The notes under the pieces: generated by a model | Databases searched by the model: none | What the model saw: only the letters and a program-made list of their open reading frames with translations | Told to the model about the DNA's origin: nothing | Made by a program: the position numbers and the translations under genes | Assembly: GCA_036172245.1 (NCBI GenBank) | Contig: JAYWIR010000108.1 | Coordinates: forward strand, 62,001-126,000 | Direction: 5' to 3' | DNA: 64,000 bases | Origin: Raillietiella orientalis | Lineage: Eukaryota | Shown here: piece after piece, positions 1 through 64,000 of the stretch | Numbering within the stretch: the stretch's first letter is position 1 | Layout: the number at the start of each line of letters is the position of its first letter

Positions 1-60
1 CCACGCGACAATCCATTGTGATTTTATTCTTTTGAATAAATGCCCCGGCATATCCGGGTG
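1..60 (+). mobile_element. 3' terminus of non-LTR element (subfamily E)
   Basis: AATAAA-TG-CCCCGGCATATCCGGGTG end motif; 3' UTR homologous to 1015-1192. Confidence 0.8.
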
Positions 61-995
61 AAAACGCGGACGACCGGTTTCTGCTTCGGTCCTGTTCCTT
101 CGGCGTGTCTGCTTTCCTCGCGCCTGTAGGAACTGACCTTTTTCTGTTGGGGCACATCCGCCTGATGTGCCCCTTCTCCCCACAGCCCAAGCACACGATG
201 TTGGGGCATTTCTTCTTCAGGTGCCCCGACACCTGGCAAAAGCCGCAGTATACGGGTTTCCCCACATACCACAGGTCGATCTCCTCCTCCCCGACCTGCA
301 GTCTGTGGGGTAGCCCACCCTCGGCACGTACCGTCACGCGCGCAGCGGCGTAACCACTAAATGCCCTGGTGTAACCCAGGACATTGGGTTTTGCCCACAA
401 CGCGTGGACCGTCCCGAACTTCTCCAAACTTTCCCGAACGGCGGTCTTGGCCATTCTCATCGTAATACCGGTGAGGTGGACAACGATGGAGTTGTCCGCC
501 GTGAACGGGAAGATTCTTCTCCCGTTCACGGTCACCGGCAGGCGGAGCAGCTGCTGAGCCATCCCTGCAGACTTGCAGTTCAGCTCAACCAGCTGCCCGC
601 ACTCCTAACCGAAAGTCCGAGGACTTCGTACTCCGGGACGTTCAATTTCTTGAACTCGGCCGCGAACGACCGCAAAACCGCGGGGGAGTACAGGCCACCT
701 GCCTTGTATAACAAGGCCAAGTTATACCCGTCGGCCATGTAGGCCCGCTGTTCCTCTGCGGGTGGCGGCGCAGGCGCCGCCACCACCGCGCTCCAAGCCC
801 TCGCCGGGGCGGGGGACGATTCCGTGGGGGAGATGGCCCCCACATCCATGGGCTGAAGGGACAAGGCTCGCTCGCCCCCCTCCGCCGTCTTTGCGGCGTC
901 CTCGGGCATCTCTGCCCAGGAACAACCGCTCACAGCTTACAGCCCCGAAAACACTCGCGAGAAAAACGCGGAGCACCACAAAAGCACGTCCAATC
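61..995 (-). mobile_element. 5' UTR and 5' half of gag-like ORF1 of an L1/Tx1-type element (3' part lost at the E insertion)
   Basis: 5' GGACGTGCTTTT motif near 990; MPEDAAK...GYNLALLYKAGGL; two knuckles CGFCQVSGHLKKKC and CLGCGEKGHIRRMC. Confidence 0.85.
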
Positions 996-1014
996 TCTCA
1001 GGCAGCGGGTTGTT

Positions 1015-1192
1015 CACACCCGGATGTGCCGGGGCATTTATTTCATAGAAATAAAATTACAGAAAAATGTCGCGTGGCGAACCCGAAGGTTCACCACTCC
1101 AAAACAGCTTGCTGCTTACCGGCTCCGTGCCGGAGAGGTCCTTCCGATGCGCGGGGATGGGAAATAAAGAAAAACAAAAAGAAACAAGTCTT
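1015..1192 (-). mobile_element. 3' UTR-only fragment (subfamily E)
   Basis: T-rich tract, GTGGTGAACC-TTCG-GGTTCGCCAC hairpin, AATAAA, terminal CCCGG hairpin. Confidence 0.75.
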
Positions 1193-1215
1193 CACGCGTT
1201 GTGGGCAAAACCCAA

Positions 1216-1352
1216 ACAAAAAGGAAGCGGTCTTCTCGCCTTCCTCACCTGAAACTGCGGCGTTCACAGGCATTTCTGCTTGTCAACGGCCGCGAAACAC
1301 ACACGAAATACCAGGCAAGAAAAACTCCCTATCCACGGAGCGCACAACAATC
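1216..1352 (-). mobile_element. 5' UTR plus first ~17 codons of ORF1
   Basis: GCAGAAATGCCT start context identical to the ORF1 starts at 15664 and 47998. Confidence 0.6.
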
Positions 1353-1363
1353 GCGACCGCCGT

Positions 1364-3036
1364 TTGCCACCCGGATATGCCGGGGCATTTATTATTCTAA
1401 TTTTCTACAAAAATTAGATAATAAAGTCTTTCAAAAGTTAATTGTGGGAAACACTTGGTTTTCCCACCTTGGTTGACGTGTCTGTTGCCGGTGCATAGAC
1501 CGGTTAGGTCCATTCCCGAGACGCATGGAAAGGAAAAACTAGAACAAAAACAAACAAAAAGAGAGATAACGGGGGAGGGAAACAGATGTATGGGAGAGGG
1601 GGGGGAGCAGGGAAGGGATCACTGGGCGCCTGGGTCGGTCCTCCGCATCCTGTTCAGGATGCAGTCAAGTTCACTTTTTATCGTGAAAGATAGACGTCAC
1701 CTTGTCGCCGTCTCTAAAGAGATCGTTGTCCAGTGGATGGCGACCATGCATCTTGAGCCTCTTCATCTGGCGCGCCACCTTTGCACAATGCCGCGCACGC
1801 AGCAGAGGACTGCTAGAGACGCAGCGGGGCGCAGGCCGTCACGAAGAAAGAGGCGACGGTAAATTTCCTGAGGGTCGCCTACTGGAAGATGAAGGATTGG
1901 GGCGATTCGACTCCAGAGTCCATCCAGGGCGACACACTCGAGGGTGAGATGCGGGAAGGTTTCTCTTTCTCCGCACTCGACACAGCGGGCATCCACATTC
2001 CCCAGTGTCCAGTGAGACAGGCGTGCTCTGCTTAACAGTCCCCAGTGCAGAAATTGCAACGCCGTCTCCTGCCACTTCAACGGAAGTGTGCCGTAATCCC
2101 AACACGCTGGGGGCGACTTCACCTCCTCCGGAGGTATTGCGAGCAGCTCTCCCCAGCGCGCAAGTCCGTGAGGCGGGACGCTCGGGGTGGCAGCGTTTGT
2201 GAGCTCCCGAGTCGTCCACGCCTTTAAAGGTTTTTCCTGCCTCGGATGAGGCAGGACACTTCCCACGATGCTTCCTCGTTACTGCTCCTACTGTTTTTCA
2301 GGGAGGACAGAACGGGGGCAAAAAGGCTCAAAGAAGCCCACAGAAACTTCCGGGGCGTGTCGATAATATCCTGCAGCGGCTGTCGAACGTACGGTCCTCG
2401 TCGTAGGCAGTTGTATTCCGCCTCGCTCGTACCGGTGATCTTAGCCCACGCGGAAGCTGACTCCTGAAGCCAGGCAGTGCAGTTCGCTGGGATGCAGGAG
2501 ATCCAGGTATTCTCCCTCATCAGGGCGACCATCTGGCGCAAATCGGGACCACAGTTGGAGAGGCTGCGCTGGCAGCCCACGAGGATCGAGGACAATCCTT
2601 CGCAGCCGGTCGCTCTTCTGGCGAGGAGCCGTGCCGGATCGCACAATGGCGTCATCCATAAGCTAGCCGCAAGGGCTAACTTTGGAATTCTTGTTTGAAG
2701 TTGGATGCGCTCCAACGTAAGGAGGCCTAAGCCACCATCCCTGCGTGGAGCGCACAAGTCTTTCAATCGGACTCGCGACCTCGCTGTGCCCCAAAGGGCA
2801 GTCCTCAAGAGGGCTTTGGTCCGTCTCTGTATGATGGGAGGGGCGGGGCAAACAAAAAGTAAGGGGCGAAGGAGAAGGGGCCGCGAACGCGTTATACACC
2901 GCGGCCCGCTCCTGCAAGTAAAACTTGCTGTTCCGGAACGGGCCGATCGCCAACTCCACCTTTTGGAGACGGTCGGACCAGGCTTCTGCAACGCAGAAGT
3001 CCCCCAACGGAACGCCAAGGTACTTGAAGCACCTGC
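1364..3036 (-). mobile_element. Subfamily A, 3' part of ORF2 (end of RT, C-terminal Zn finger) and 3' UTR
   Basis: FKYLGVPLG; RRDGGLGLLTL; CVECGERETFPHLTLEC; near-identical inverted copy at 61.64-63.31 kb; frameshifted. Confidence 0.9.
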
Positions 3037-3240
3037 CGATCCAACGATGTCGACCCAACTTGAAGCTAGTGAAGTTTGGGGAACAGCATCCGGATCTGCA
3101 ATCGCGGAACCGACGGCCGCCTCCACTTCGTCTTTCTCCCCAATGGAGAGGAGTTTTGCTGACGTTGGTGCCACAGCAGCCGTCAAAGGGAAACCACTCG
3201 ACGAGTCGGAGAAGGCTATAGACCTGCTCTCCGATATAAG

Positions 3241-4950
3241 GTGAGTGGTTTTCTTTCTGCGCGCGACGGGAATCAGTTCAACGATGAACTGACCCGTGCT
3301 GGCGTGCGTGAGGAGGACCTTCTCGCCATTATGCCCGTAAAAGACATGGGCTATTTCAAGGTGCTTTGCAAAGACGCTGCACTTGTGCAACGCTTGCTGC
3401 GCACCCCGTTGTCGATCCGTGGCCAGAATGTCTTCCCGGCCGCCAAGGACGACTCATTTGTGGCGGAGATTTTCGACATCGAGTCGGAAATCTCCGATAT
3501 TGATATTCGGAACGCGTTGGCGAAATTCGCCACGGTCAATGCGCTGTGGAGGGTGCGTAGCAACCTCAAGGACTTCCCGTCCATACACAGCGGAGTCGCT
3601 GGAGTCCGGCTTACAATGCCGGACCGCCGTCTGCTGCCCACCAAACTACAGGTGAAAGACACAGTCGTTCACCTGTGGTTCGTGGGCAAAGTAAGAACGT
3701 GCGAGCAATGCGGGAAGGAGGGGCATTGTTTGGAAAAATGCCATTCTGGAAAATGCCGTTATTGCAAACTATCCGGGCACCAATTGAAAAATTGCCCGGA
3801 TCTTTTGCGAAAAAAGGCAGCCGCGGAGCTCCATTTTAAAAAACAAAGCGCGGATAATAAGAAAAAATCTGCGAAAAACCTGGAGACCCCACGGCAGAAA
3901 TTCCGTAAAAACGCGAGGCGGAATGTCGCCCCAAAGCAGCAGGAAACCTCGCACGCGAAGCCCTGCGCACCCCCTCTCGCGGCAGGGGAGCCGCAAAAGA
4001 AAGGGTGCGGGGAATCCGGGGCAATGGTAAGTCCCCCTAGGCGCAATAGCTGTCCTTCCCAAGCACGCCCGGCTCTCTCGGAGTTCGAGCAACCGGCGGG
4101 GACGCCAATGGACAACGGCGGTAAGGACACTTCCAGTACCGTCAGATCCATTCCTTCACCTCCTGCAGTGGCTGAGAAGCCCAAATCGGGTAAGAAGGGT
4201 TGTGCCGTGTCGACTTCGAAAGTCGGCAAAAAAAAATCCGCGTCGCGATCCAACACCGCGAAAGCGGAGAAAAATCTCACGCCGTCGCAGTCGGAGAGCA
4301 AGCTCTCGACTGGCGCGGATGCCATGCTAACGAAGGGATTAGAAGCCCTTCCGAAAGCAGCGTCCATGACGAGCGTGTCGGAGCCATCGAAAGTGCTCCC
4401 GTCCAAAGGCGCGGATGGCTTTAAAGATGGCCATGGAGCACAATCTCCATTTACGGCGCCACGCGAAGTGAGGAACCGTAATGAAGTAAAGAAGACTTCA
4501 GCAAAGGTCCCTCGTGCAACTGCGCGTGAGCACGCTGAAAACGCGCGCGCCGGGAAAGCAGCCGTCACCAAAAGCGATGCTCTGGTGACGGAAGACGACA
4601 ACAGGACAGCTGTCAATACAGCAGAATTTGTCACTGCTTCGCGGAAGGCCGAAACCCGATCGAACATGCGCCGGTCGGACTCCGAAATGGATGCCGTTCC
4701 GTTCACCGAGACGAGGACAACTCGTTCGAAAGCGTGTGCGCGCCGATCAAAAGTAGGCAGCCAGGCAACGCTCGCCGCGAAGCAACGCGAAGTCTCCACG
4801 AAACCCGACGGGGTTCAGCCTGGCGCGGAGGCATTACATGCATGCAGCACGACAAATGACGGTGGCGACCGTCCCCTCCAGCTAGTCGTGCTGCTCGCCG
4901 TCTGCTCGCCGCATAAAGCGAGCAAAAAGCCGCCACCTTCCCAGCAGTAA
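3241..4950 (+). pseudogene. ORF1 gag-like protein with 2 CCHC zinc knuckles (N-terminus from 3048 in another frame)
   Basis: CEQCGKEGHCLEKC, CRYCKLSGHQLKNC; long K/A/S-rich tail. Confidence 0.85.
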
Positions 4951-7234
4951 TGCGGGGAATCGCGTCTTCTCGTCGTCTGTCCGTCACGTGTTGGAACGTG
5001 AACGGACTACAGAACGACGAGAAGAGGCGATTAGTGGCCAACGCCCTGCGCCCCTTCGACCTCGCGCTCCTGCAGGAGATTCACGTAATCTCCGACGAGC
5101 AGGCAGCCGAAATCGAGGAGCGCACAGGCGGAAAGCTATATTGGCGGTGCGGCGTCGTGTTTTTCGTAAGAAGAAAAATGGAGGAAGCGGTGCGTAGTGT
5201 TCGTTTCGATGACGAAGGACGGATAAACCAGCTTGTCTTCATGTGGTCCGAGTCCATCGATCTCGTCGTTACGAACGTCTACGCGCCGAGTGGCTCTCGC
5301 TACCTCGAAGAAAGAGTAGCTTTCTTTGGTGAGGTGCAGAGCCTCTGGCTCAACAACTTCGGCTTCCAAGTGGCGCACCTCGTCGCTGGGGACTTCAACG
5401 TCCGCCTGCTCTCCGACGATTGGAGCCGCCCGAGGGAGCGCGCGCTGCCCATCGAGATGTGCACGTCCGTGCACGTTGCCAACTTGATGGTCTGCGAACC
5501 TGGAATGGAAAGATCGCTCGAGCACGTTTTCCTCGATGAAAACCTGCATTCGCGTGTGGGTAGGAGAGGAAGATTGTTGACTAGGCTTTCTGACCACCAC
5601 AGGTTGGAGTTTGAGATCCTTCCGTCAGGCAGGGGGCCTCCGTTGCATAACTGCAGGATGCAGGCGGATTGGCTCCGTCAACCGGAGGCTGCGGAGCATC
5701 TACGTGGACACCTCCGAGGCTTTGCCATTCAAGAACTTGCGGACTTGGACGATCTCAAAAGATCTGTCCACGAGTTCTGCTGCCAATTGCCCTTGCACCG
5801 GCTTTCACGTGGTTTCGAAGAGGGTGTGGCCAACAGTAGAGACTTTCTGCAGATTTCGAGACGCGCGGATGTCGGGCGTCTTTCATAGTACAAGGCGAGG
5901 GCCGAGCGCTAGGTCTGGCAGTCCGGAGAAGCATGCCTGTTGGACGACAAGGGCTCGACGAGCCCTTCACGGCGGATGAATTTTCGTCCGCCATCGCTGG
6001 GCTGAAAAGACGAAAGGCGCAAGGCGAGGATGGGCTCCCTGGAGAGTTTTATCAGTGCTTTGAAGTGGAGCTTATTCCCTTCATGCTGAGACTCGCGACG
6101 CTGATGAGTGAATCCGGGAATCTCCCGGATTCCTTCCTCTCAGCGAAGGTGCGTCTCCTGCCGAAAGGCGGAGACTTGCGTCAACTTAACAACTGGCGTC
6201 CGATCACCTTGGTGAACTCGGACGTCAAGTTGTTTTCCAAGATGTGGGTCGCGCGGTTAGGAAGTATCGCGGAATCTGTGGTGAGCACGGAACAAACCTA
6301 CGCGGTTCCGGGACGATCCATGGAGGCGAACATCCTTTTCGCGCGTACATTGATGCAGCTGCAGGAACTTGTGGCGCAGCAAAGCCAGCCTGCTGATAAA
6401 GTCACTGCTGCAGGCAAGAAGCACAGGCGCCGACGGCAGGAGAGAACGCCAGGTGCCTTGGCGGTCGCGGTCGATCTCCACAAGGCGTTCGAATGCGTAA
6501 ACCAGAAGCTGCTTTTGGAGCTTATGGAAAGCCTTGGGTTCCCGGCGCAACTCCTGCTGTATTTGAGCGCGTGCTGGCGCCACGCGCTAACCTGCATCAC
6601 TTTCAGCGGCTGCCGCGTGTATGGTATTCCCGTTCGTAGGAACGTCCGACAGGGCGACAGCTTAAGCCCGTTGCTCTTCAGCATCTTCTTCGAGCTGGTG
6701 CTTAGAGCATACAGGCTGACGCTGTCTCACTTGCCAAGCCTCTGCCTGGGAACGCCTGCCGTGGCCGCCTACGCTGATGACCTGCTTCTTCTGCTCCCCA
6801 TGTCCACCCCGGCGTCCAGTGTCAAAGATTTCTTCGACCTGATTCGTCGGGGAGCGGGCGTGAGCGTGAACAGAGAGAAGAGCGTGGTCGTTCCTGTGGG
6901 TACGTCGTGGGAGGGACAGTCCGACTGGATCCGCCTGGGGATACCCATGAGCGGGTACTTCAAGTACCTTGGCGTTCCGTTGGGCGCTTTCGGCGCAGCC
7001 GAGGCGTGGGCGGACTGTCTTCAGAAAGCAGAGTTGGCCATCTGCCCGTTCTTTAACGGCAAGTTTACCTTGCAGGAACGGGCGACTATTTGGAACACCT
7101 TTGTGGCCCCCCTTCTCCGTCCCCTGTTTTTTGTTTTGCACTTCCCCTATGCGGCAAAATGCGGGCTAAAAGCCTGCTCAGGAACGCTCTCTGGGGTCCG
7201 GCGAGATCGAGGATCCGCCTTAAAGATTTGTTAG
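4950..7234 (+). pseudogene. ORF2 APE endonuclease and reverse transcriptase (stops, internal deletion near 5955)
   Basis: WNVNG, LQEIH, NVYAP, AGDFN, SDH; NWRPITL, DLHKAF, RQGDSLSP, YADD, KYLG. Confidence 0.92.
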
Positions 7235-8180
7235 CTCCGCGTCGGGATGCTGGTTTGGGTATGTTGACAATGGAGCGAATCGGACTGCAGGTGCAGTTCC
7301 TACTGTTAGCACTGTGTGCCCAGCTATGGACATCCCCCCTGTGTGTGTCAGCCCGCATTCTCCTACGGAGATGCACCGGCAGCGGAGGATTTCTCTCGCT
7401 TTTGCCGGGCACTCATTACAGGAAGCGGGGTTTCGGGTTTCCATTGCGGCAGTTGACCGCACTTCTGGAAGCACACTCGTGGATCTCCTGCCGCCCAATA
7501 AACTTTGAAGCTGGGCGGCAGGAGTCTGTTGAATCCTGAACGGCGTTCCAATAAAGGCGCCCTGAAGATCTTCGCCCCCTGCGCCAATTTTTTCCACGAT
7601 CCTTGGAAGAAGTACTGCAGGACGAGGTGAAGTTTTCTATCCTGGCTGCCGCGCCTCTTGCCGCAGCGCTGTCTGCCCTGAGGGCAAGAAACGACAGTTA
7701 CCAATTGGCGAGGTGGGAGATTTTCGGCACGATAGCGGGAAAAACCAAACTTCTTGACGCCTGGAAGACGAGTGAGTTGACGGACGCCTCCACTCCTCGT
7801 TTAAACTGCAAAGGAACTCCTCCGGTGGGCAGAAGAACTTGCTGTCACCCCCGAAGAACTTGTAGTCCCTCCACAGTGTATTGAAGGTTCGCTGCTCCCC
7901 CTTGCTTGGAAACAAGCCATGGTGCTTTTCGTTCACTGGTGTTTTCATTGGCATCGTGACTCCTTGGGACTTGCGTCTGCGAACTGATTTCGTAGCGGAT
8001 CGACGGAGTCGATTCCGCACCTACTTCTGAACTTCGGTGTCCTACAAGGACTGCGGCGTAGGCTGGCAACAGCACTAATGCACCCCGTGGACACCGCAAG
8101 AGACTTGCTGCGACGATTCTTCACGCCGAGCGGGCTGTTCCTAAGCGCAAGGATTGCAACCATCGGTTGCATACGCGCGA

Positions 8181-10216
8181 TACGGCCAAAGGCCACAATC
8201 TTCGATGGCTACGATAGCCTTTTCGGAGGGCAGGCCGCCGCGCGCGTGACGGTGAAAGAGAGTGGGCTTCCCCACAAACTAGAGGTCAATGGCGAAGTCG
8301 TAGACCTCTGGTACGTGGGGAAACCCCGCTTTTGTGGCTACTGCAATGCAGTAGGACACTTGCGCAAGCGGTGCCCGAACATTGTGTGCCACTTATGAGA
8401 GTAGAAGGGACACGTACGCCGCATATGCCCTAAACGCCCCACTCCGGTGCCGCCTGCTGCAAAGAAAGCACAGGCAAAACGCGGTAAACTGGTCGAAAGA
8501 CCAAAAAGCGATACTGGCCGGCAGCAGCCGCTAGCCCCTGTTCCTCCCACACAGGCGTCGGAAGAAAAACCCTCCGAAGACGCGGGAGTCCAAGACGGCT
8601 GGCAGCTGGTCAAGGCCAGGAAGGAGACAAAGGTGCCCCCCGCGGAACCCGCGAAAGCGGTAAAAAAGACAGCCGGCAAGGCGAAGAAACCTGGGCCGCG
8701 CTCTAAGACCATGCGGGAGTGTACGGTAGCACTGGAGCGCATAGCCGTTCCCGAGATTGCCACCCGGGGCGACGAGCCTTCCCTCGCCGTTTCCGCCGCG
8801 CCCGAGGTTCGCGACGGCGAACCCTCTGTTTACACAGAGGGTGAGCCGCGCGACGCGCCGGTCGACACCGAGGACGCCGCGTTCGCAAAGGCGGCGGAGG
8901 AGCTCGCGGCCACGCTGGCGGAGCGTGAGAACCCCTCAGGCAAGGCCGTGCGAAGGCCGGCTCCCGCGAAAAAGGCCCCCACAGGTGAGTCGGACCTGGG
9001 GGCCGGAAGTGCATCCTCCTCCTCGGAGGCACCCCCCAGGAAGTCGGGACGCAAGTCCCAGAAACCCAGGAGGCGCCTCCCCTCCACCAGCGAGGGGGAG
9101 AAGCAGGAAGGTAGCGCTAGCGTGGGAATCCCGGAGGGGGAACTCCCACGCTCGGAAGCCGTCGAGCCGGCCACCCCCATGGAGGAGGGTGAGCAGGGGG
9201 GCGAAGTCCTCCCTGCAGTCGCCGAGCCTGAACAGCCCGCCCCCATGGAGGAGGGCCAACAGGTAGGCGCGACCCCACTTAAGGGTGACCCCTCGACGCG
9301 CCGTTACCCATGGAGGAGGGGGACCAGGTGCACGCAGCGCCTGACCCTCCTCCTCCACCTAGCGTCCCGCCCCAACAGGTGGCGGACGCCGCATCGCCAT
9401 CTTCCCAGGAATAACACCTGGGCTCGCCAGTCGCCGTCGGATTCGCGCCGTCTGTTGGAACGTCAACGGGCTGCGCGACGACGGTAACAGGCGAGATACG
9501 GCCGACACCCTGCGTGAGCTCGACCTGGCCCTGCTGCAGGAGATCCACGTGATCACCGCGGCAGACGCCCAGGAGATCGAGACGATCGCGGGGGGTCGGC
9601 TGTATTGGCGGTGCGGCCTCCGCAACACCTGAGGGGTCGCGTTCTTCGTGAAGCCGGCCATCGACGCGGCCGTGAAGGGCGTGCGCTTCGATGACGACGG
9701 TCGGGTCGTTCAGCTGATTCTCAGCTGGTCCGACTCGATCGAATTGATCTTCACGAATGTGTACGCCCCCAGCGGTAAACAGGGATACAGCGACCGTACC
9801 AGGCTGCTGGATTCCCTGAAGCGCGACTGGCTGGCGGACACGAACGTGCGTAAGGCTCACCTGATAGCGGGAGATTTCAATCTCCGTCTGCTAACAGGTG
9901 AGCCAGAAACACAAGAGAACGCGATGAACGAGTTGTGCGCCGCCATGCGTGCGCGCAACTTGTTCGCGGGTGAGAGGGGAATGGTCCGCAGCATCGAACA
10001 CGTCTTCCTCGACGCTGACCTGTGTTCACGGGTCGGCAAACGGGGGAGGGTTGCGTCGACGTTGTCGGACCATTCCCGGTTAATTTTCGAGATGCGGCCT
10101 CGTGACAAGAGACCGCCATCCAGGGATTGGCGTCTGCCGGGGGACTGGACGCGACTCTTAGGTGCGAAGGAGTACCTTCGCGAACACCTGAGAGGTGTCC
10201 CGCTCCGGAATCTCCA
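8181..10216 (+). mobile_element. Subfamily B1, 3' part of ORF1 and APE; continues at 15748
   Basis: CGYCNAVGHLRKRC knuckle; PMEEG repeats; APE motifs; sequence resumes after the TSD at 15748. Confidence 0.9.
10201..10216 (+). repeat. Target-site duplication, left copy (right copy 15748-15763)
   Basis: Exact CGCTCCGGAATCTCCA on both sides; host frame LRNL|QDWD rejoins. Confidence 0.95.
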
Positions 10217-10429
10217 TTGAAACCCGGGTGCGCCGGGAGGTTTATTTTAAAGAATAAACTTATACAATCTGTGACTGGACCAGTAGTCCAGCCACGCCCT
10301 GGAAAGATATAGCCTGCCGGGCTACCGGTGCGCAGACCGGCGCGGTCGACCTCGGCAGCAGAGGGGAGGGGGAACGAAACAAAAAGAAAACAAAAAATAA
10401 ACAAAAATCAGGGAGGGAGCGGGAAGGAA

Positions 10430-13400: not shown

Positions 13401-14007
13401 GCTGATCAAGGTACACGTGATCGATGCTTTCCATGGCCGTGTCCCCGGCCAACAAGTTGCGCGTGTTCATTTCTGCGCACAACTCGTTGACGCGGTCGTT
13501 CAGTGTATCCGGCGCACCTGAAAGCAGGCGCAGGTTGAAATCACCTGCGATCAGGTGCGCTTTGCGAACTCCTGCATCGGTCAGCCAATCGCGTCGCAAG
13601 GCAAGGTAGAATTCCCTTCTTGCCTTCGCCTTCAACCCCTTATTTCCGCTAGGAGCGTATAGGTTGGTGACGACCAGGTCGATAGAGTCGGACCAGCTGA
13701 GAGTCAGCTGACCGACGCGACCTGCGTCATCGATCCGAACGTCCTTTATTGCGGCGTCGATGGCTGGCCGAAGCAGGAAGGCGACACCGCTTGATTTCGC
13801 GGTGCCGCAACGCCACAACAGCCGCCCACCCAAGATACGTTCGATCTCCCGGACTTGATCTGCGGAGATCACGTGGATCTCCTGCAGCAGCACCAGGTCG
13901 GAGGATGCCAGGGTGGCGGCCACGTCACGCCTCTTGCCGTCGTCGCTTAGCCCGTTCACGTTCCAACAGGCGATCAGAAGACGACGCCGAGAGGCGATTC
14001 CCGGCAT
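10430..14007 (-). pseudogene. ORF2 APE-RT-Zn finger, disrupted
   Basis: Collinear ORFs 13033-14007, 11953-12813 and 10430-12061; YADD lost by a 1-nt deletion. Confidence 0.92.
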
Positions 14008-15664: not shown

Positions 15665-15747
15665 TTCTGCCTAATCCTCCACCCACACCACGCAAAAGCA
15701 CCAACGGAAATAAAACTCAGGAGCAACGAAAAGACACGTCCGCTTGA

Positions 15748-36035: not shown

Positions 36036-36051
36036 CCCCAAATCCATTGGC

Positions 36052-38595: not shown

Positions 38596-38637
38596 GTGCG
38601 AGCGCAGGAGATCGAACAAATCTCCAGAGGGCAGCTA

Positions 38638-53100: not shown

Positions 53101-54915
53101 CGCAAGGGGAACCGCCTGCAGAACTCGCGGACCGATCTTTTCAGATCGTCTCAGTCCACGAGCTCTCGAACGGCAAAGGTCCGGAGATGCTGGCGGAGGT
53201 GCTCCGCAGCCACAGGATTTCTCAGCCAGTCGGCCGACAACCTCCAGACGTGCGTCGGAGGGCCCTTGCCAGGCGGGAGTAGCTCAAACTCCAGCCTGTA
53301 GTGGTCGGAAAGCTCGGACGGAACAGGACCTCTTCGACCCACCCGACAATGCAGGTGATCTTCGAGGAACACATGGTCCGGCAAAGCACGCATTCCGGGA
53401 TCGTCGGCCAGCAAATTCGAGGCGTGCACCGACGCGCACACCTTGTTCACCAGCCGTTTTTCATGGCGACGGTGACAGTCCTCCGATAGCGCGTGGACGT
53501 TGAAGTCCCCGGCTACGAGGTGAGCCACGTCGGGGCCGGAGTTGCTGAGCCAGCAGTCGCGCAGTCTCTCGAAAAACTATAGTTTCTCGGTGTGACGCGC
53601 GGAGCCGCTCGGCGCGTACACGTTCGTGACGACAAGGTTGATCGATTCGGACCACTTGGGAACAGGTTGGCCCACACGACCTTCCTCGTCGAAACAAACG
53701 CTCCGCACCGCTCCCGCCACCCTGCCTCGGACAAGGAATGCGACTCCGCAGGTATTCTGGGAGCCTGACCTCCAATGAAGCGTCCCGCATGCGCGAACTT
53801 GCAGATCGGCCGCTTGCTGCTCGGAGAGTGCGTGAATCTCCTGCAGCAGGATCAGATCGATTTCGCGCAAGACGTTGACAACCAATCGCCTCTTCTCGTT
53901 GTCCTGCAGCCCGTTGACGTTCCAACAGGTCACTCGGACGCGACGGGAAGAAGCGAGACCGCGCATTGCTGCTACGGACATGGAGGTGCGTTCCTCGCCC
54001 CGTCCGGCGAGGCATCAGCCGGGAGCATGGCGGATGAGGTAGCGCAAGCGTTTCCTGTCCCCGCCGCGCCGCTCCAGCCGGCTCGGTGGAGTCGAGGACC
54101 ATTACCTCGGGCTCCGAGGAGCATCGGGAACCGTTCCCGGCATCAGACACTTGCCTGGCAAGTTTTGGCTTGCGCGCAGCCCTGGCCTTGACCGGGGCTT
54201 GGCGAGCCATAGCGCTGCCCTCGGACTCCACCTCGGAGTGCGAATTGCGCGCGCGCGGCGGCGGGCGTTTCGCCTGCCTCTTTGTTTGCTGGCAGCCCAG
54301 AGCTGGTCCAGCACTCTTAGAGGGTGCCTTCGTCGCCGATCCCCCTTTCGGTGTCACGGCTTCGGCAGCTCCCCTCTCGCCGCGGGTGTTTGCGGCAACG
54401 CGCGCGGCGGCAGCAGAGGCTTTTCCTTGCGCCTTTCAGGACGCGCGGGGTTGCCCCTTCACCCTGCCTACCTTTTTGATCGGGAAGTGGGAAGGATCGC
54501 GCTGTTTGCGCTCCTTCTTTCCCCCGACGAAGGTCCAGCCATCCTCGCCGCCTTCCTGTTTCCCCGGTTGTGCGCGAGGGCTTACAGGGTCCTTCGCATC
54601 CTTTCCAAGGCTTCGGATACGGAGATGGAGGCCAGTGTCTCCTTCGCCACATCTGCCTTCTGCACCTCCTTACTGGGAGGTGCGGGCACAGTGGCGGGAT
54701 TCTCGGGTGTCGCGCGAGTCTTTTCAGCCTTTGCTGGCGTTCCGCCCGCCGTGGCCGGCTTGTTTGTCGCGGGCAAAGGGGTGCGCGACTTCTTTTTCGA
54801 CGCTCCGGTGGTCTTCCCGGGCGTGCCACCGTTATTTCGCTCCGGAGCGAGAGCGGACGAAAGCGGCGGTGGTTTTGCAGCCTGCCCGATGTTTTTGCCT
54901 GTTTTTGCAGCCTGC
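50174..54915 (-). mobile_element. Subfamily D, ORF1 tail through 3' UTR
   Basis: Collinear APE, RT (YADD), CKQCGGAETLPHLLLDC; several stops. Confidence 0.92.
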
Positions 54916-57179
54916 ATTTAATACACCAATCACACTAGAAGGCCGAAAGGTTTTCCCGGAAACGGAGGATGGCTCCGTGGTGATGCACCTCATGGGAGTC
55001 AACCTCCGCATTTCAAAAGCCGACGTGCAGGAGGAACTCGGAAAATACGGAACGGTTCACGCGCTATGGACCAAGCTCAACGTCTTCCAGAGTTACGGAA
55101 GACTGTTTAGTAGCATGGCAGGTGCGCGTGTAACCGTCCACGAAAACGGTGAGCTACCCCACAAACTAGACGTCGGCAACGAGACCGTCGACGTCTGGTA
55201 CGTGGACAAGCCCAACTACTGTTGACACTGTGATGCCACAGGGCACCTGAAAAAGCGGTGCTCTAACATCCAGTGTTTCCACTGTGGAGAGAAGGGCCAC
55301 CTCTGCAAAGTGTCCCCGAAGCGCGAACCCCCGGCTCCCGCTGCCTTGAGAAAGGCCAAAGGGAAACGCGCGGGGGTTACGGAAAATCCTGCGAAGGCAC
55401 CCGTGAGACGGAACCCACAGCCGGAGCCCGAACCCGTACAGCAAACGCCGGTCGTGGAATCTACCGACGACGCTGAAAAGAGCGAAGGCTGGCAAAAGGC
55501 GAAGCCTAAAGCTAAGAAAACAAAGAAAACCGAAGGGTCGACAGCGGAACCCGCGACGTCTCCTTTAAATAGGAGACAACGCCGCGCGTTGATCCGCGAA
55601 TGTTCGGTCGCTTTGGAGCTTGTGGAGGTACCCGAGACAGCCATCGGGGCCGATATCCCCTGCGTCGATGCCTACGAGAACGCGATCACGGAAGGCGAAC
55701 TACCTGTGCAAACAGAGGGGGAACCGCGCGACGCGCTCGCCGCGATCGACGAGGCCGCCTTCCACCAGGCGGCCGAAGAGCTTGCGGCCAAATTCGCCGA
55801 CCGTGAGAACGGCGCGCCAAAGGCCTTGCGAAGGCCGGCCGCGACCAGGGCATCTCCAACAGGCGAGCACGACCCGGATGCCGGAAGTGCGTGCTCCTCC
55901 ACGGAGGCGCCTCCGAAGAAGACGGGACGGAAGTCCAAGAATCCCAAGAGGCGCATCCCGACGAAGAGCGCGGGATACTCACCGGCAGCCGAGGGGGAAG
56001 CCGGCAGCGTGGGAACGGAAGGAGGAATTTTCCCACACTCCGCCACCGAGCAGCCGGCCACTTCCATGGAGGAGGAGGGGGAGCAGGTAGGGCATTGCCT
56101 CCCCGTTCCACCGGTGGAGCCTGCGGAGGAGATGGTCATGGAATAGGCGGAGTAGACAGGTGAGAACCGCTCCACCCTGCCGACCGACGCAGCCAAGGAA
56201 TCGGTCCCCATGGAAGAGGGGAAGCAGGTGCGTGAAGCATGCTCCCTTCAACCGTTGCGGTCCGCCAAGGAATCGGCCCCCATGGAGGTGGGAGAACCGC
56301 TGGGCGGTGCCCTCATGCCTCCATCCGTCACGCCCGACCAGGTGGCGGGAGCCCCATTGCCAATTTCCCGGGAATAACACCTGGGCTCGCCTGTCGCCGT
56401 CGATTGCGTGTGGCCTGCTGGAACGTCCACGGGCTGCGCGACGACAGCAACAGACGGGACACGGACGCCAGCCTGCGTGACTTCGACCTGGCACTCCTGG
56501 AGGAGATCCACGTGATCACCAGGGAAAACGCCCAGGAGATCGAGAGGATCGCAGGGGGGCGGCTGGTGTGTCAATGCGGCACCCGATACAGCTGCGGCGT
56601 CGCGTTTTTCATGAAGCCGGCGATCGACGCTGCCGTGAAAAGCGTGCGCTTCGACGAAGCCGGTCGTGTCGGCCAGCTGATTCTCAGGTGGTCCGACACG
56701 ATCGACCTCGTCGTAACAAACGTATACGCCCCGAGCGGTTATAACGGGTACCGGGAACGCGCGGCGTTCCTGGAAAGCCTGAAGCACGACTGGCTGGTGG
56801 AAGCGAACGTGCGCGTGGCTCACCTGATAGCGGGAGACTTCAATCTCTGCCTGCTATCAGGTGATCCACGCACACAGGAACGGACGGTTAACAAGTTTTG
56901 CGCTGCCATGCGCACGCGCAACTTGTAAGGGGAACTCCCGGAAATGGTCAGCAGCATCGACCACGTCTTCCTGGACGTAGACCTGTGCTCGCGGGTAGGC
57001 AAACGTGGGAAAGTTGCGTCGGAACTGTCTGACCATTCCAAATTGATATTCGAGGTGTGCCCGCGCGACAAGGGACCCCCGTCCAGGGTGTGACGGTTGC
57101 CTGGGGACTGGACGCGTTTCTTAGATGCGAAGGAACACCTTCGCGAATTCCTGAGAGGCGTCACCTTCCGGAATCTCGC
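54916..57179 (+). mobile_element. Subfamily B2, part of ORF1 and APE
   Basis: Near-identical to 48530-50173; APE continues to FRNL. Confidence 0.9.
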
Positions 57180-60100
57180 TTGAATCCCGGGTGCGCCGGG
57201 ACGTTTGTTCTCACGAATGAACCTATATAATCTGTGACTGGACCAGTAGTCCAGCCACGCCCTGGAAAGATATGCTTGCCGGGCTACCGGTGCGCAGACC
57301 AACGCGGTCGACCTCGGCAGCAGAGGGGAGGGGTAACGAAACAAAAAGAAAACAAAAAAATAAACAAAAATCAGGGAGGGAGCGGGAAGGGATCACAGTC
57401 TGCTGGGAGGGTCCGTCATCCTCTGGAGGATGCCGGCAAGCTGCTTCTGCGTGTGTGGTTCCAGGTGGGGCCATCGCGTCGCCATCCTGAAGAAACGGTC
57501 GGCACACACGTTGGCATCCCTGTCGCTGGATCCTCCCGTCGCTTTGCTCCATGCCACGACGATCCGGCGTAGGCAGCACAGGGCTGCATTCGAGGCCGCT
57601 GGAGGTAGGGCGTAATGGACGAAGAGGGGGCGCAAAGCGTTTCTGGGGTTGCCTTTGGGAATCCCCAGGGCTGCGGCAAAGCGTTCCCACAAGGGACGGA
57701 GGGCAACACAATCCACTAACAGGTGGGGGAGGTATTCCCTCTCCCCGCATCTGACAAAATTAGGGTTGACACTCCCCCGCGTCCAGTGGTGTCTCCGGGC
57801 GTTGCAAGGAAGTCCCCAATGAAACACCAGCAGTGCCGACTGTTGCCACTTCATGGGGAGGGGGTGCGAGTCCATGAGCACCGAGGGCCATTCGAGATGT
57901 TCCTCTGGAACACCCAGTAGCTCTACCCAGCGCAAGAGTCCATTTGGGGTGGTCCTCGGGGTCGCAGCGTTGGTGAGCTGACCTGTTCTCCAATCCCCGA
58001 TCATCTTTGCCCTGCTGGCGATCTTGAGAGTGACCTCCTATTGTGCTGCGACGTCGCTGCCCAGATGTTCCCGTAGGGTAGGCAGTACCGCAGCAAGGGA
58101 TGTTCTTTCTGCCCACGCCCTCCTTCGGGGATCCTCGATGATTTCTCGGAGCGTGCGGTGGGCATGAGGCTCGAACAGAGCTATTCGCTCGTGTTGCGGG
58201 CTCTGCTCCTGAATCATCGCCCACGTGCGCACGGTTTCCTGCAGCCAGGCAGAACCGTTTGCGGGGCGTACGTGGATCCGCGCCAAGTTGTCCCTCACGA
58301 GCTTGGCCGCCCTCCGAAGTTGAAGTCCGCAGTGGCAGATGCGGCTTCGGAGTGCAAAGTAGGACGAGAGTCCCGCATTGCCGGTGGCCCGCTCGACGAG
58401 GAGACGTGCAGGGAGGCACCAAGGGGTGCACCAATGTTCTGCCATAAAGGCGACAACTCGGAACTGGAGCTGTAGCTCCAGCCGCTCCAACGTCAGGAGG
58501 CCCAGACCACCATCCCGACGAGGAGCGCACAAGTCCGAAAGACGGATTCGGGGCCTCCCTCTGCCCCAAAGGGCGATCCTCAGGAGGTCCTTCGTCCTCT
58601 TCTTTGACTCCGCTGAGGGGGGGCAAACAAAAAGCAAGGGGCGAAGGATGGGAGCCGCAAACGCGTTCCACGCCGCGGCCCGTTCCTGCAGGTAGAACCT
58701 GCCGTCCTGGAACGGGCCGATCGCCGCCTGAGCCTTCTGAAGGCAGCCGCATCACGCTTCCGCAGGGGAGTAGTCTTTCAACGGCACACCAAGGTACTTG
58801 AAGTACTTCACCGTGGGGATCCCCAAACGGACCCAGTCCTGCTGCCCTGCCCACGCCGCTCCGACTGGCATTACGCACGACTTCGCCCTGTTCACCGTAA
58901 GTCCAGTTCCACGACTCAGCAGGTCGAAGAAGTCCTCGACCGATGAGGCCGGGGTGGACATAGGCAGCAGCAGCAGAAGATCGTACGCGTACGCCGAAAC
59001 CCCAGGCGTACCGGAACAATCGCACGGCAGGTGTACCAGAGTCTCCCTGTATGCTCTCAGCACCAATTCCAAATAGGCCCTGAAGAGCAAGGGGCTGAGG
59101 CTGTCTCCCTGCCGTATGCTGCGTCGCACCGGTACGCCGTACACGTTTGATCCAGTAAAAAAAACATTAATAAGCGCCTCGCGCCAGCTAGAGCTCAAGT
59201 AGGCCAGAAAAGAGGCCAAGAAGCCCAAACGTTCCAGAAGCTCCAAAAGGAGATTCTGATCGACGCAATCGAATGCTTTATGCAAATCGACTGCGACCGC
59301 CAGGGCTCCTCTCCCCTCCCGACCCTCCCGTCCCTTACCGACGGACGCACCGGAATTCCGGTTGCTTATTATGCTCCTTCCTTGTTGGAGCTCTATCCAT
59401 GTGGAAGCGCTGAACAGGTTCGCCTCCATACTTCGCCCGGGGACCGCATATGTCTGTTCGGAGCTGATGAAGACGTTGGCGACCCGTCCCAGGCGCTCTG
59501 CCCACAGCTTGGCTAGCAACTTGGCGTCCGCATTCACTGTTGTGATGAAACGCCAGTTGTTCATGCTCTTAAGTTCTCCTCCCTTAGGGAGGAGCCGCAT
59601 CTTTGCTGAACGAAACGAGGTGGGAACGTCACCTGTTTCGCGGATCAGCAAGGTGAGCTGATGTACCAGAGGAGTAACCTCTGCCGCCAAAGTTTGGTAA
59701 AACTCCGCAGGCAGGCCGTCACCCCCTGGAGCCTTTCGTCTCTTGAGCTTTCCGATGGCCGAGATGATCTCGCCCATCGTAAAAGGCTCGTCGAGGTTCC
59801 TTTTCTCCTTCTCCCCGATTTCTGGAGCACCTTCCGGAAGCAGGAGTCGTGAGACAGCATGCTCCGAAGGCGCCCTAACGTACAGGGAGGAGTAAAATTT
59901 CCTCAGTATCCCGCGTTTCTGAGCGGGAACCGAGTGCTCCCGGCCCTGGTCCTCCAGCAAGCTGACCGACCCGGATTGCCAGGCTTGCCTCTCGGCTCCC
60001 GCTCGATACTCTGCTAACCTGCGCATGTCGGGGGTTCTCGCGTAACGGCGGGCGTGAAGATGACACCTTTCGTTACGCGGCCCCTCCCCAACTCCCTCTC
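57180..60100 (-). mobile_element. Subfamily C, linker-RT-3' UTR
   Basis: Closely similar to 10217-13130. Confidence 0.92.
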
Positions 60101-60630
60101 CTGGAGAGCGGACGTGTTTTTCCGGCGCTCCGCGAACGAGCAGCGGAAAGCGGTTTTTTTGGTTCTGTGTGTGCTTTTTCACATCGTTGGTGTCCGATGG
60201 CATCGCTGCCAGAGGACGCCACGATGGAGATAGGCGTGAGGGAGGCTAGCCCCCCCCCACGACCTACAGAATCAGGGACACCCGCTCCGGAATCGCCCTC
60301 GTCGCCCAAGACGAGCAGCTGGAGCGCCATGGTCGTCGCGCCGAGCGCGGAAACCTTGCCTGAGCAAGCGGCCTACAGGGCCTCCGGATATAAACCATCC
60401 CTGGTTTATAAGGTAGGAAACCTGTTCGACGGTCGCACCGCGCGTGCTTTTAGCAAGGCACTACAGGAATTCCCCGTGCGTGAAAAGGATCTCGACGGCC
60501 TCGCCGTACTCAGCGGAAGACAATGCGTGGAGGTCGTCTGCAAAGACGTAGCCCTAGCGCAGCGCCTCTTCAACACTTCGCTGAATGTGGCTGGCCGAAA
60601 GATCCTACCCGTTAGCATGGATCCTACCCG
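60101..60630 (+). mobile_element. B1-like 5' UTR and ORF1 N-terminus
   Basis: GGACGTGTTTTT at 60110; ORF1 similar to 36153 onward. Confidence 0.88.
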
Positions 60631-60638
60631 ATTTCATG

Positions 60639-63315
60639 GAGCTTTCCGATGGCGGAGACGATCTCCGCCATCGGAAAGCTCAGAAAGAAAAAAGCACCAG
60701 GGGAAGACGGTCTGCCCGCGAAGTACTACCAAGGCTTCGTGGCGGAGCTGGCCACCCTGGTGCATGGGCTATGCATGCTGATCCGAGAACAAGGGGACGT
60801 CCTTAAATCGTTCCGGTCAGCTAGAGTACGTCTCCTGACGAAAGGAGGAGACAATCGCAACGTAGGCAACTGGGGTCCCGTCACAGTAGTGAATGCGGAT
60901 GCGAAGTTGCTTGCCAAGCTTTGGGCTGAGCGACTGGGACGGGTGGCGGAATCCGTGGTGAGTCCGGAGCAAACATACGCTGTTCCCGGACCAAGCATGG
61001 AGGCCAACCTGTTCCTCGCCAGTACATGGTGGCAGTTGCAACAAAGCGAAGACCAAGGAGGTCAAGAGAATCCTGGATTCTCCTCTGATTAGGGAGGGGA
61101 CGCATTTCATGAAAGAGCCGCGCCCAGTGCCCTTGCGGTCGCAGTCGATCTGCGTAAAGCGTTCGATTGCGTCGACCATAAACTGCTTCTGGAGCTCCTG
61201 GAACGCTTGGGATTCCCGGCCGTCTTCCGGTCTTACCTGCGCTCCTGCTGGCGCTTCGCTCTAATAAACATCTCTTTTAGCGGCCGGCACGTGTACGACG
61301 TGCCGGTTCGGCGTGGCATAAGGCAGGGTGACAGTCTGAGCCCCATGCTCTTCAGCATCTGCTTCGAGCCGGTGCTGAGGGCATACAGGGAGACTCTGGC
61401 AACCCTGCCAAGCTCGTGTCCCGGCACGCCTGCCGTGTCGGCCTACGCCGACGACCTTCTGCTCCTGCTCCCCGGGTCCACCCCGGCGTCGACGATCGGA
61501 GATTTCTTTGAGTTGCTGCGCCGCGGGACGGGCCTCGAGGTGAACAGAGAGAAATCTTCCATCGTTCCAACATCACCACAACTTTTCAACAATATGGCGT
61601 GGGCCGGACGGCCGGACTGGATCCGCTTGGGGATCCCCACGGGCAGGTGCTTCAAGTACCTTGGCGTTCCGTTGGGGGACTTCTGCGTTGCAGAAGCCTG
61701 GTCCGACCGTCTCCAAAAGGTGGAGTTGGCGATCGGCCCGTTCCGGAACAGCAAGTTTTACTTGAAGGAGCGGGCCGCGGTGTGGAACGCGTTCGCGGTA
61801 CCCCTCCTTCGCCCCTTACTTTTTGTTTGCCCCGCCCCTCCCATCATACAGAGACGGACCAAAGCCCTCTTCAGGACTCCCTTTGGGGCACAGCGAGGTC
61901 GCGAGTCCGATTGAAAGACCTGTGCGCTCCACGCAGGGATGGTGGCTTGGGCCTCCTTACGTTGGAGCGCATCCAACTACAGACAACATTTCGGAAGTTA
62001 GCCCTTGCGGCTAGCTTATGGATGACGCCATGGTGCGATCCGGCATGGCTTCTCGCCAGAAGAGCGACCGACTGCGAAGGATTGTCCTCGATCCTCGTGG
62101 CCTACCTCCGCAGCCTCTCCAACTGTGGTCACGATGTGCGCCAGATGGTCGCCCTGATGAGGGAGAATACCTGGATCTCCTGCATCCCCGCGAACTGCAC
62201 TGCCTGGCTTCAGGAGTCAGCTTCCGCGTGGGCTAAGATCAAGGGCACGAGCGAGGCGGAATACAACTGCCTACGACGAGGACCGTACGCTCGACAGCCG
62301 CTGCAGGATATCATCAACACGCCCCGGAAGTTTCTGTGGGCTTCTTTCAGCCCCCTTGCCCCCGTTCTGTCCTCCCTGAAAAACAGTAGGAACAGCAACG
62401 AGCTGGCATCGTGGGAAGTGTCCTGCCTCATCCGAGGCAGGAAGAAACCTTTAAAGGCGTGGACGACTCGGGAGCTCACAAACGCTGCCACCCCGAGCGT
62501 CCCGCCTCACGGACTTGCGCGCTGGGGAGAGCTGCTCGCAATACCTCCGGAGGAGGTGAAGTGGCCCCCAGCGTGTTGTGATTGCAACACACTTCCGTTG
62601 AAGTGGCAGGAGACGGCGTTGCTATTTCTGCACTGGGGACTGTTAAGCAGAGCACGCCTGTCTCACTGGACACTGGGAAATGTGGATGCCCGCTGTGTGG
62701 AGTGCGGAGAAAGAGAAACCTTCCCGCATCTCACCCTCGAGTGTGTCGCCCTGGATGGACTCTCGAGTCGAATCGCCCCAATCCTCCATCTTCCAGTAGG
62801 CGACCCTCAGGAAATTTACCGTCGCCTCTTTCTGCGTGACGACCTGCGCCCCGCTGCGTCTCTAGCAGTCCTCTGCTGCGTGCGCGGCATTGTGCAAAGG
62901 TGGCGCGCCAGATGAAGAGGCTCAAAATGCATGGTCGCCATCCACTGGACAACGATCTCTTTAGAGACGGCGACAAGGTGACGTCTATCTTTCACGATAA
63001 AAACTGAACTTGACTGCATCCTCAACAGGATGCGGAGGACCGACCCAGGCGCCCAGTGATCCCTTCCCTGCTCCCCCCCCTCTCCCCATACAACTGTTTC
63101 CCTCCCCCGTTATCTCTCTTTTTGTTTGTTTTTGTTCTAGTTTTTCCTTTCCATGCGCCTCGGGAATGGACCTAACCGGTCTATGCACCGGCAACAGACA
63201 CGTCAACCAAGGTGGGAAAACCAAGTGTTTCCCACAATTAACTTTTGAAAGACTTTATTATCTAATTTTTGTAAAAAAGTAGAATAATAAATGCCCCGGC
63301 ATATCCGGGTGGCAA
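60639..63315 (+). mobile_element. Subfamily A, 5'-truncated with terminal foldback
   Basis: RT motifs incl. YADD; Zn finger; 3' end CCCCGGCATATCCGGGTGGCAA. Confidence 0.92.
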
Positions 63316-64000
63316 ACTTCGGCTGCAGCGGAGTATTCCTGGCCAGCGTCATCGAGCAGACAAGCCGCTCCAGACTGCCAAACCTGGCGCTCGGCCCTGG
63401 TCTTATACTCCGCCAGACACCGGACGCCCGGGCATCGTGAAAAGGTACACGCCTGCAGATAGGATCTGCTGTTCGCGATAACCTCCCGGAAGCCGCGTGG
63501 AAGCAGGTGCAAGGGAAACCGGCTGCAGAACTCGCGAACCGATCTTTTCAGATCGTCCCAGTCCTCGAGTTCACAGATGGAGAAGCCCCGGAGGTGTTGG
63601 CGGAGATGCTCCGCCGCCTCCGAGTTGCTAGGCCAGTCGGCCGGCAACCTTCAGACATTCATCGAAGGCCCTTTTCCAGTCGGAAGGATCTCGAACTTTA
63701 GTCTAGGATGATCCGAAATCGCGGACAGCAGGCGTTCTCTCCGACCTACTCGTAAGAGCAGGTTTTCATCGAGGAACGCATGGTCCGGCGAACTCTCCAT
63801 CATGGGCTCACCAGCAAGCAAGTTTTGAACGCGCACGGACGCGCATACCTCGCTCAACAGTTGCTTCTCCCTCAAGCGGCATCTCTCCTCTGTTAGCAGG
63901 TGGACGCTGAAGTCTCGTGCAAGGAGGCTCGCCACGTTAGGGCCGGAGTCAGCGTGCCAGCGGCTGCGCAGGCCACCCAGGAATGCAAGTCGCTGGGCGT
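63316..64000 (-). mobile_element. D/F-group APE C-half and linker
   Basis: ARDFS, PDH, SDH, LPRGF, LLDDAGQEYSAAAEV. Confidence 0.88.

Follow-up and report, generated by a model that had tools for sequence, protein, structure and literature searches.

Here we describe a stretch of 64,000 nucleotides from Raillietiella orientalis (assembly GCA_036172245.1, contig JAYWIR010000108.1, positions 62,001 to 126,000; hereafter the window) that is built largely from retrotransposons lodged inside one another. The window very likely represents a cluster in which at least seven families of apurinic/apyrimidinic endonuclease (APE)-type long interspersed nuclear elements (LINEs) are nested, each family inserting by target-primed reverse transcription (TPRT) at its own exact antisense site in an open reading frame (ORF) of a sibling element. 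The window gives good support for insertion into sibling LINEs that is antisense, specific to the family, and exact to the nucleotide.

Self-comparison and protein mapping assign 54,193 of the 64,000 nt (~85%) to elements, with 31.6 kb of element sequence on the plus strand versus 28.8 kb on the minus strand. The remainder is mostly untranslated region (UTR) or poorly conserved ORF1 tail, and only 24645-28984 is different sequence. G+C content is 56-63% throughout, except for a lower-GC stretch at ~24-29 kb, and long open frames abound on both strands. Pfam matches to Exo_endo_phos and/or RVT_1 occur in 14 of the 32 long frames scanned; a 907-aa frame (30550-33270, minus) carries both. The nearest solved structure is human L1 ORF2p (E=5e-40), with R2 far behind (2e-13). 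Given these domains and the clear lead of L1 ORF2p over R2, the elements are, as far as their predicted proteins tell, APE-type, L1-like retrotransposons that lack long terminal repeats (non-LTR retrotransposons). The best-preserved copy, E1 (5.5 kb, minus strand), has an ORF1 of 445 aa, in which the cysteines form a CCHC-type pattern, and an ORF2 of ~1,220 residues split into three frames; at the C-terminus a zf-RVT match is weak (E=0.0047 and 18 bits in E1, against a Pfam cut-off of 27.5; E=0.05 in D1), and a C-x2-C...H...C pattern is seen in the alignment. Below, U denotes nucleotide position in E1 sense coordinates, residue numbers refer to the 907-aa reference frame, and junctions are written as J followed by the position of the 3' terminus.

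An earlier note on this DNA, made from the letters alone, had proposed 13 intact 3' termini, and all 13 are present within a few bases of where it placed them. A profile hidden Markov model of the terminus recovers exactly these 13 (E <= 6e-6), the next match having an E-value of 0.44. The termini share a common pattern—AATAAA, a CCCGG-N5-6-CCGGG hairpin-like motif, and 2-7 further nucleotides, often ending in AA—and none of the 13 carries poly(A) or a microsatellite; Rfam gave no match. Six tail types can be distinguished: A (J1364, J63315), A' (J60, J1015), B (J18761, J36035), C (J42352, J47628), D (J22075, J38638, J50174), and E (J10217, J57180). Our E corresponds to family C of the earlier note, and our C to its family H.

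What lies beyond these termini carries the argument. The reverse complement of each flank was translated and aligned to the reference frame. The proposal that every recognisable flank is the antisense strand of another copy's ORF stands, with 11 of the 13 flanks being of this kind. Nine termini (J10217, J18761, J22075, J38638, J42352, J47628, J50174, J57180, and J63315) have antisense ORF2 of another copy behind them, and all nine matches stop exactly at the junction. J60 lies antisense in the ORF1 of copy b (tblastn E=5e-61), and J36035 is followed by a 20-nt spacer encoding antisense ..NGFG and then by the full-length 5' end of Z, a B-family copy on the same strand.

Each tail type has its own insertion point, identical to the nucleotide, and the five site motifs read previously—GGRL, RNL, GFG, A(A)E/V, and DLHKAFD—were all recovered. 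D-type copies enter at residue 89 (U1921), where the host frame is cut after ..AGGRL (J50174), ..AGVG plus 2 nt (J22075, the same nucleotide), or ..SRGQL (J38638); E-type copies at residue 295 (U2541), after ..LRNL (J10217) or ..FRNL plus 2 nt (J57180); the B type at residue 322 (U2621), after ..PPGFG (J18761); the A type at residue 378 (U2790), after ..SAAAE plus 2 nt (J63315); and the C type at residue 595 (U3439), after ..DLHKAFD (J47628) or ..DLHKGLD (J42352), within a strongly conserved reverse transcriptase (RT) motif. Insertion is antisense at 10 of the 13 junctions; the other three are head-to-tail, an arrangement that the earlier note did not describe and that fits repeated insertion at one site.

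Counting events per site gives three at GGRL, two at LRNL, three to four at GFG, two to three at KAFD, and one at AAE(V), so that 10-12 independent events at four recurrent sites yield at least six exact coincidences. The chance of each is ~6e-4 (allowing ±3 nt on the same strand of a 5.5-kb element), and same-site recurrence is thus far beyond chance. Orientation is equally regular: the family-specific sites whose host strand can be assigned are antisense in seven of seven cases (~1 in 64, two-sided). Insertion could instead be merely regional, drawn for example to the chromatin of centromeres or to heterochromatin, as has been suggested for clusters of the Zepp type, with the shared sites being chance or breakage hot spots. 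The whole window is indeed one dense cluster, like the Zepp and ZeppL clusters described earlier (PMC3446292, PMC8226300); set against that many same-strand coincidences, exact to the nucleotide, and the seven antisense sites, a regional preference seems extremely unlikely.

Shared junctions might also descend from single events copied by segmental duplication or unequal exchange, with later gene conversion making the inserts look younger. Host and insert should then be equally diverged, as the earlier note recognised; insert and host-flank identities were therefore compared for same-site pairs with Fisher tests, and divergence proved unequal. Identity is 92.6% between inserts and 79.1% between hosts for the E pair (800 bp each, p=3e-15), 81.8% and 72.7% for the D pair J22075/J50174 (800 bp each, p=4e-5), and 80% and 62% for the C pair (500/250 bp, p=3e-7); the flanks of the four other same-tail pairs compared did not align. 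Because hosts are significantly more diverged than inserts in all three alignable pairs, these are independent insertions and not segmental duplications. Additionally, the three D hosts come from different families—the third is a 47-nt remnant closest to the C family (29/36) and unalignable to the other two—and the three B-site hosts (h, a 20-nt remnant, and E1') likewise differ among themselves, while conversion tracts would need to stop exactly at every junction. Copying does find some footing in several non-canonical breakpoints, in the junctions Cfull/B2 and C3/K2, which show opposite sides of the C site and may not be separate events, and in a direct duplication of 1,643 bp (48531-50173 versus 54920-56565, 93%) that flanks D1; this last might be a target duplication of unusual length, a product of unequal exchange, or simply two distinct copies of the F family. 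Taken together, we judge it very unlikely that copying produced the shared junctions, and we return to independent insertion at family-specific sites.

With copies projected on the reference frame, pairwise ORF2 identity ranges from 37 to 89%. The copies form groups E, C, B, F, A, a second clade (G, D, and K3), and the divergent h and K1, which by predicted ORF2 amounts to at least seven families at 45-85% identity. E inserts are found in f (B) and f' (F); D inserts in f'' (F), j (B/F-like), and a C-like remnant; C inserts in K1, K2 (B-like), and B2 (B); B or B-like inserts in h, a remnant of unassigned family, and E1' (E); the A insert in K3 (clade 2); and the A' insert in ORF1 of copy b. Insert and host families differ in every resolved case. 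No insert sits in its own family, yet this is not significant (~12 events, seven families), and a search for self-avoidance, in which a family would lack its own target, gave no clear pattern among the window copies, where data are few. Partly reciprocal targeting had also been proposed, and at least one pair confirms it: the RNL-site family sits in two GFG-family-like hosts, and the GFG-family-like Y2 sits in an RNL-site copy. The reciprocal relation therefore holds between E and B/F.

Using probes for every copy covering each site, together with occupied hosts that the probes missed, we found the D site occupied in 3 of 12 covering copies, the E site in 2 of 10, the B site in 3 of 10, the A site in 1 of 7, and the C site in 3 of 13. 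The sites are specific but not saturated. The sequence TCCGGAATCTC is carried by only two copies (of the B and F families), and both E events are in those two; the GGRL site of f' at 56565 is empty, though f' is 93% identical to the occupied f''.

As the most likely mechanism, we propose that the endonuclease of each family nicks the sense strand of a host copy at its own short site in the coding region, so that the new copy would always lie antisense to its host; for the E family, the nick in host sense would fall at ..AATCTCCA^GGACTGG. The reverse transcript would be primed by the 3' OH at the nick and would begin at the conserved 3' end of the element's RNA, a second cut ~15-16 bp away would complete integration and leave a short target-site duplication (TSD), and a few extra bases would often be added at the 5' junction. 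Such a duplication would leave a restored target beside the 3' end, and a further insertion into it would give a head-to-tail pair with a short spacer, as in the head-to-tail junctions described above. Site specificity would presumably reside in the endonuclease of each family, and the conserved 3' AATAAA/hairpin motif may be the recognition element for the RT. Beside the D junctions there is a further likeness: the D-type tail ..GGTGATACA (22066-22075) resembles sequence just upstream of the nick in the empty GGRL site of copy h (..GTGGTATAC, 19447-19456, insert orientation), so that part of the uninterrupted target is re-created at the 3' junction. By eye, no such mimicry is evident for the E, B, and C tails.

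The 5' junctions agree with this scheme. The start GGACGTGTTTTT, with up to two mismatches and followed by ..GCTCC.., is common to all seven full-length 5' ends and is kept despite families only ~45-85% identical in ORF2; it is probably a conserved initiator or internal promoter element. E1 is a textbook target-primed insertion, with a perfect 16-bp TSD whose 16-mer is found only at those two window positions and a host, f, that runs on in register on either side (U2542, U2522). Past the 5' end of Cfull come 11 extra nucleotides and then a 15-nt KAFD-site target copy belonging to B2 (plus strand); a 26-nt duplication was rejected here, since the host accounts for only 15 of those nucleotides. 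Z begins 20 nt past the 3' end of B2, consistent with a B-family element having inserted again, in the target that the first insertion had duplicated. The 5' end of Y2 (60110) adjoins E1' (minus strand), whose homology to E1 stops beside the GFG codons; Y2 and E1' were considered as a twin-priming inversion of one element and rejected, the ORF1 of Y2 being only 38% identical to that of E1. The 5' end of f'' adjoins K2 (minus strand) within a ..DAKL.. motif at ~U3180, and, in the C-like remnant, that of W is found 47 nt upstream of the D site, hinting at two further family-specific sites, also antisense. Many copies are 5'-truncated with an intact 3' end. An attempt to join h and j as the single host of copy i, with a 70-nt duplication, was abandoned because the overlap is only ~70% identical.

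The choice of site might alternatively be set by pairing between RNA and target: a read-through 3' extension would anneal to the same host sequence elsewhere, and each lineage would inherit the site of its founder, similar to what is proposed for some elements specific to ribosomal DNA (rDNA). That one site is kept per family even in hosts only ~60-80% identical would suit this idea, as would the good conservation of the first 15 nt past the nick (14/15 in C-family hosts, and in E-family hosts too) and the lack of a visible nick motif common to the families. We nevertheless consider RNA pairing improbable: new copies bring no flanking sequence with them, their tails stop sharply at one and the same base and show no evident complementarity to the primer strand, and a nick at a fixed position would be needed anyway.

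Several observations weigh against reading the cluster as a set of family-specific TPRT insertions. The evidence comes from one 64-kb window in which each family contributes 1-4 events, and the window does not tell an endonuclease basis of specificity from RNA-target pairing. ORF2 is intact in none of the copies, the longest frame covering 907 of ~1,220 residues; every copy in the window is defective, and present-day activity is not claimed. Two junctions, J1015 and J1364, are followed by spacers of 23 and ~12 nt with no assignable host, and then by same-strand 5' ends. Compensatory changes were seen in none of the five pairs of the putative hairpin across the 13 aligned termini; the 3' structure is therefore plausible but unproven, its pairs being conserved in sequence without compensatory change. 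Metagenome scans returned no close relatives, the second giving 80 loci that were all generic LINEs at 21-44% identity. Only E1 has both junctions in the same host, and the 5' ends of truncated inserts mostly adjoin unrelated pieces that do not continue their host (Table 1), so that rearrangements, target deletions, or duplications must be assumed. On that assumption some odd 5' joins are readable as target deletions, in which case D3 in its C-like host would have lost ~480 nt. Copies G and Cfull lack 3' ends, there is a further non-canonical breakpoint at 24214-24264, and the breakpoints at 8176-8182, 24214-24264, 29750, and 60622-60643 are not TPRT junctions; from the missing 3' ends and non-homologous joins it follows that deletions or rearrangements acted besides insertion.

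Table 1. Element copies, start motifs, and non-continuing breakpoints in the window.
Feature	Position	Strand	Remarks
A'-type copy, 3' terminus (J60)	1..60	+	flank antisense to ORF1 of copy b
Copy b, 5' UTR and ORF1	61..1014	-	cut by J60 at ~U946; start motif 980-991; 23-nt spacer 992-1014
Copy c, A'-type tail (J1015)	1015..1363	-	349-bp internally deleted mini-element
Copy d, A-type (J1364)	1364..3037	-	5'-truncated; 96% identical to 61642-63317
Copy G (clade 2)	3038..8182	+	ORF1, APE, RT; 3' end missing
Copy f (B family), left half	8176..10216	+	host of E1; ends in TSD copy 10201-10216
E1 (E family), full-length	10217..15747	-	3' end 10217; start motif 15730-15741; 6 extra nt
Copy f, right half (J18761)	15748..18761	+	TSD copy 15748-15763 first, B-type tail last
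Copy h	18762..19512	-	host of f; cut directly after ..PPGFG
Copy i, D-type (J22075)	19533..22075	+	5'-truncated
Copy j (B/F-like)	22076..24000	-	81% nt identity to f; host of i at GGRL site; ORF1 at 23140-23778; right boundary approximate
Cfull (C family)	29750..33919	-	full 5' end (33908-33919); 907-aa frame; 3' end missing
B2 (B family), B-type tail (J36035)	33920..36035	+	host of Cfull at KAFD site; start 33920-33945 is 11 extra nt plus 15-nt target copy
Antisense GFG-site spacer, then Z (B family)	36036..37486	+	spacer 36036-36055 (20 nt); Z has full 5' end, 93.6% identical to f; tandem re-insertion
W (clade-2-like), 5' part	37593..38590	-	full 5' end 38579-38590
C-like host remnant, 47 nt	38591..38637	+	last 36 nt encode AQEIEQISRGQL; 29/36 positions match Cfull
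D3, D-type (J38638)	38638..39220	-	583 bp; 5'-truncated
C2 (C family; J42352)	39220..42352	+	5'-truncated
K1	42353..45146	-	divergent host of C2; cut after ..DLHKGLD; right boundary approximate
C3 (C family; J47628)	45147..47628	+	5'-truncated
K2 (B-like)	47629..47902	-	host of C3; cut after ..DLHKAFD; other end adjoins f'' 5' end
f'' (F family)	47903..50173	+	full 5' end; host of D1; cut after ..AGGRL
D1 (D family; J50174)	50174..54900	-	5'-truncated; right boundary approximate
f' (F family)	54920..57179	+	93% identical to f''; host of E1'; cut after ..FRNL
E1' (E family; J57180)	57180..60091	-	homology to E1 ends at GFG site, start of Y2
Y2 (B-like), 5' part	60092..60622	+	start motif 60110-60121; antisense in E1' at GFG site
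A2 (A family; J63315)	60643..63315	+	5'-truncated
K3 (clade 2)	63316..64000	-	host of A2; cut after ..SAAAE; continues beyond window end
5' start motifs	980-991, 15730-15741, 33908-33919, 36056-36067, 38579-38590, 47903-47914, 60110-60121
Non-continuing breakpoint d/G	3037
Non-continuing breakpoint G/f	8176-8182
Non-continuing breakpoint h/i	19512-19533
Non-continuing breakpoint D3/C2	39220
Non-continuing breakpoint K1/C3	45146
Non-continuing breakpoint D1/f'	~54900
Non-continuing breakpoint Y2/A2	60622-60643

Some features of individual copies deserve mention. In copy c the first ORF1 codons, with the 5' UTR before them, run directly into the 3' UTR and an intact tail, and it is possible that this copy is a non-autonomous rider of the A' family, resembling a short interspersed nuclear element (SINE); 23 nt of it match the opposite strand of copy b ORF1 (384-406) exactly. 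The 5' region of Cfull contains a 42-bp tandem duplication (33729-33811; two copies, 92% matches). The lower-GC stretch at 24645-28984 (4.3 kb, 45-47% G+C) is without homology to the cluster families and is followed by a different lower-GC LINE, 'K' (28063-29791). Its ORF1-like frame (28063-29001) has zinc-knuckle motifs, with zf-CCHC reaching only E=0.05; its APE start (29150-29788) matches Exo_endo_phos at E=2e-7 and is 27% identical to the reference, and the element breaks off at ~29750, where it meets the 3'-truncated end of Cfull.

The lineage is poorly sampled. A representative protein search (1.84 billion) gave 26,210 matches, of which only P0001 (72%) and P0013 (68%) exceed 33% identity; a word-index protein search gave seven, only P0001 being close (71%), and a protein atlas held only generic APE+RT clusters. 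Public sequencing runs comprised one DNA run with a small share, and no RNA run was among those listed. Over 38001-58000 the DNA run, X1, yielded 172 short contigs, mostly 90-95% alike, and none could serve to bridge or test a junction. Many of these contigs match C-, D-, E-, and F-family sequence at 90-95% identity, which means that a related strain, species, or sample also has these families.

Site-specific LINEs are natural models for programmable, endonuclease-guided gene insertion, and in the window five distinct sequences of 15-20 bp appear to be recognised by at least five closely related endonucleases. This natural series is a compact set for working out how APE domains gain new specificities, and is of interest to transposon biologists and endonuclease-specificity researchers alike. 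If the pattern is true, transposons can themselves serve as a multicopy "safe harbour", the families being at once parasite and host, and exact-site nesting offers a concrete mechanism for the growth and confinement of LINE-only clusters, such as the centromeric Zepp arrays of algae. The arrangement may offer a harmless, self-renewing target that also breaks competitors and partitions niches. A bolder picture is a LINE radiation living only on each other—endonucleases specialised on different codon-level sites in the sense strand of related ORFs, mutual targeting, and a closed, self-renewing ecosystem that is perhaps, as with Zepp clusters, the sole chromosomal home of these elements and perhaps a centromere mark—which we put forward tentatively and think somewhat doubtful. 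Genome-wide generality, the endonuclease basis, and the evolutionary story go beyond the support of the window.

Site-specific APE LINEs, such as R1 and the Tx1 group, are established, as is the sharing of rDNA sites among families. The Tx1 group (Tx1L in Tx1D, Keno, and Mutsu) consists of APE-type, L1-like LINEs with sequence-specific targets, one of them inside another transposon. The elements described here resemble that group in their sequence-specific integration into a multicopy target, at recurrent sites exact to the nucleotide. In contrast, the hosts of the Tx1 group are an unrelated DNA transposon or an RNA gene, with one element-target pair each, whereas here they are the ORFs of sibling LINEs. 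In the rDNA guild (R1, R2, R4-R9, and RT), related elements divide among themselves the positions along a single conserved multicopy sequence; that sequence is a gene array of the host, whereas here the target is the elements' own relatives, targets and parasites being the same population.

Closer still are LINEs that nest into their own copies. Zepp of Coccomyxa subellipsoidea C-169 and ZeppL-1_cRei of Chlamydomonas are, like the present elements, L1-type LINEs, and they occur almost exclusively in clusters of nested copies (PMC8226300, PMC3446292); Zepp-like clusters have been located at Chlamydomonas centromeres (PMC8226300). Zepp clusters arise by insertion into existing copies, as here, where 11 of 13 3' flanks are sibling-element sequence. 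There are also differences. Zepp and L1-1_CR carry a 3' poly(A) (PMC3472496, Table 1), which is absent from all 13 termini here; 3' ends in Zepp/ZeppL clusters form tandem, same-orientation arrays (PMC8226300), whereas here the junctions are mostly antisense, with 3 of 13 head-to-tail. Zepp/ZeppL clusters are described as having one family per species—a single ZeppL family in C. reinhardtii (PMC9940879), and up to two in some relatives (PMC8226300)—while at least seven families are found here, each with a distinct exact site. Cnl1, a LINE-1-like element of Cryptococcus, inserts preferentially within itself and forms nested arrays; unlike the families of the window, it is described as a single family that is tandem (sense) and subtelomeric, without cross-family targeting (PMC9942834). 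The novelty first claimed for this system was accordingly overstated, and the cluster is less unprecedented than the earlier note judged, since self-nesting LINEs are in print (PMC8226300, PMC3446292, PMC9942834); what stood is the antisense, cross-family, reciprocal pattern, for which our literature search, excluding supplements and the original Zepp junction accounts, returned no multi-family LINE-in-LINE system with antisense insertion at distinct exact ORF sites. A habit known from algal and fungal LINEs, nesting within their own copies, is thus extended here to a network of several families that target one another.

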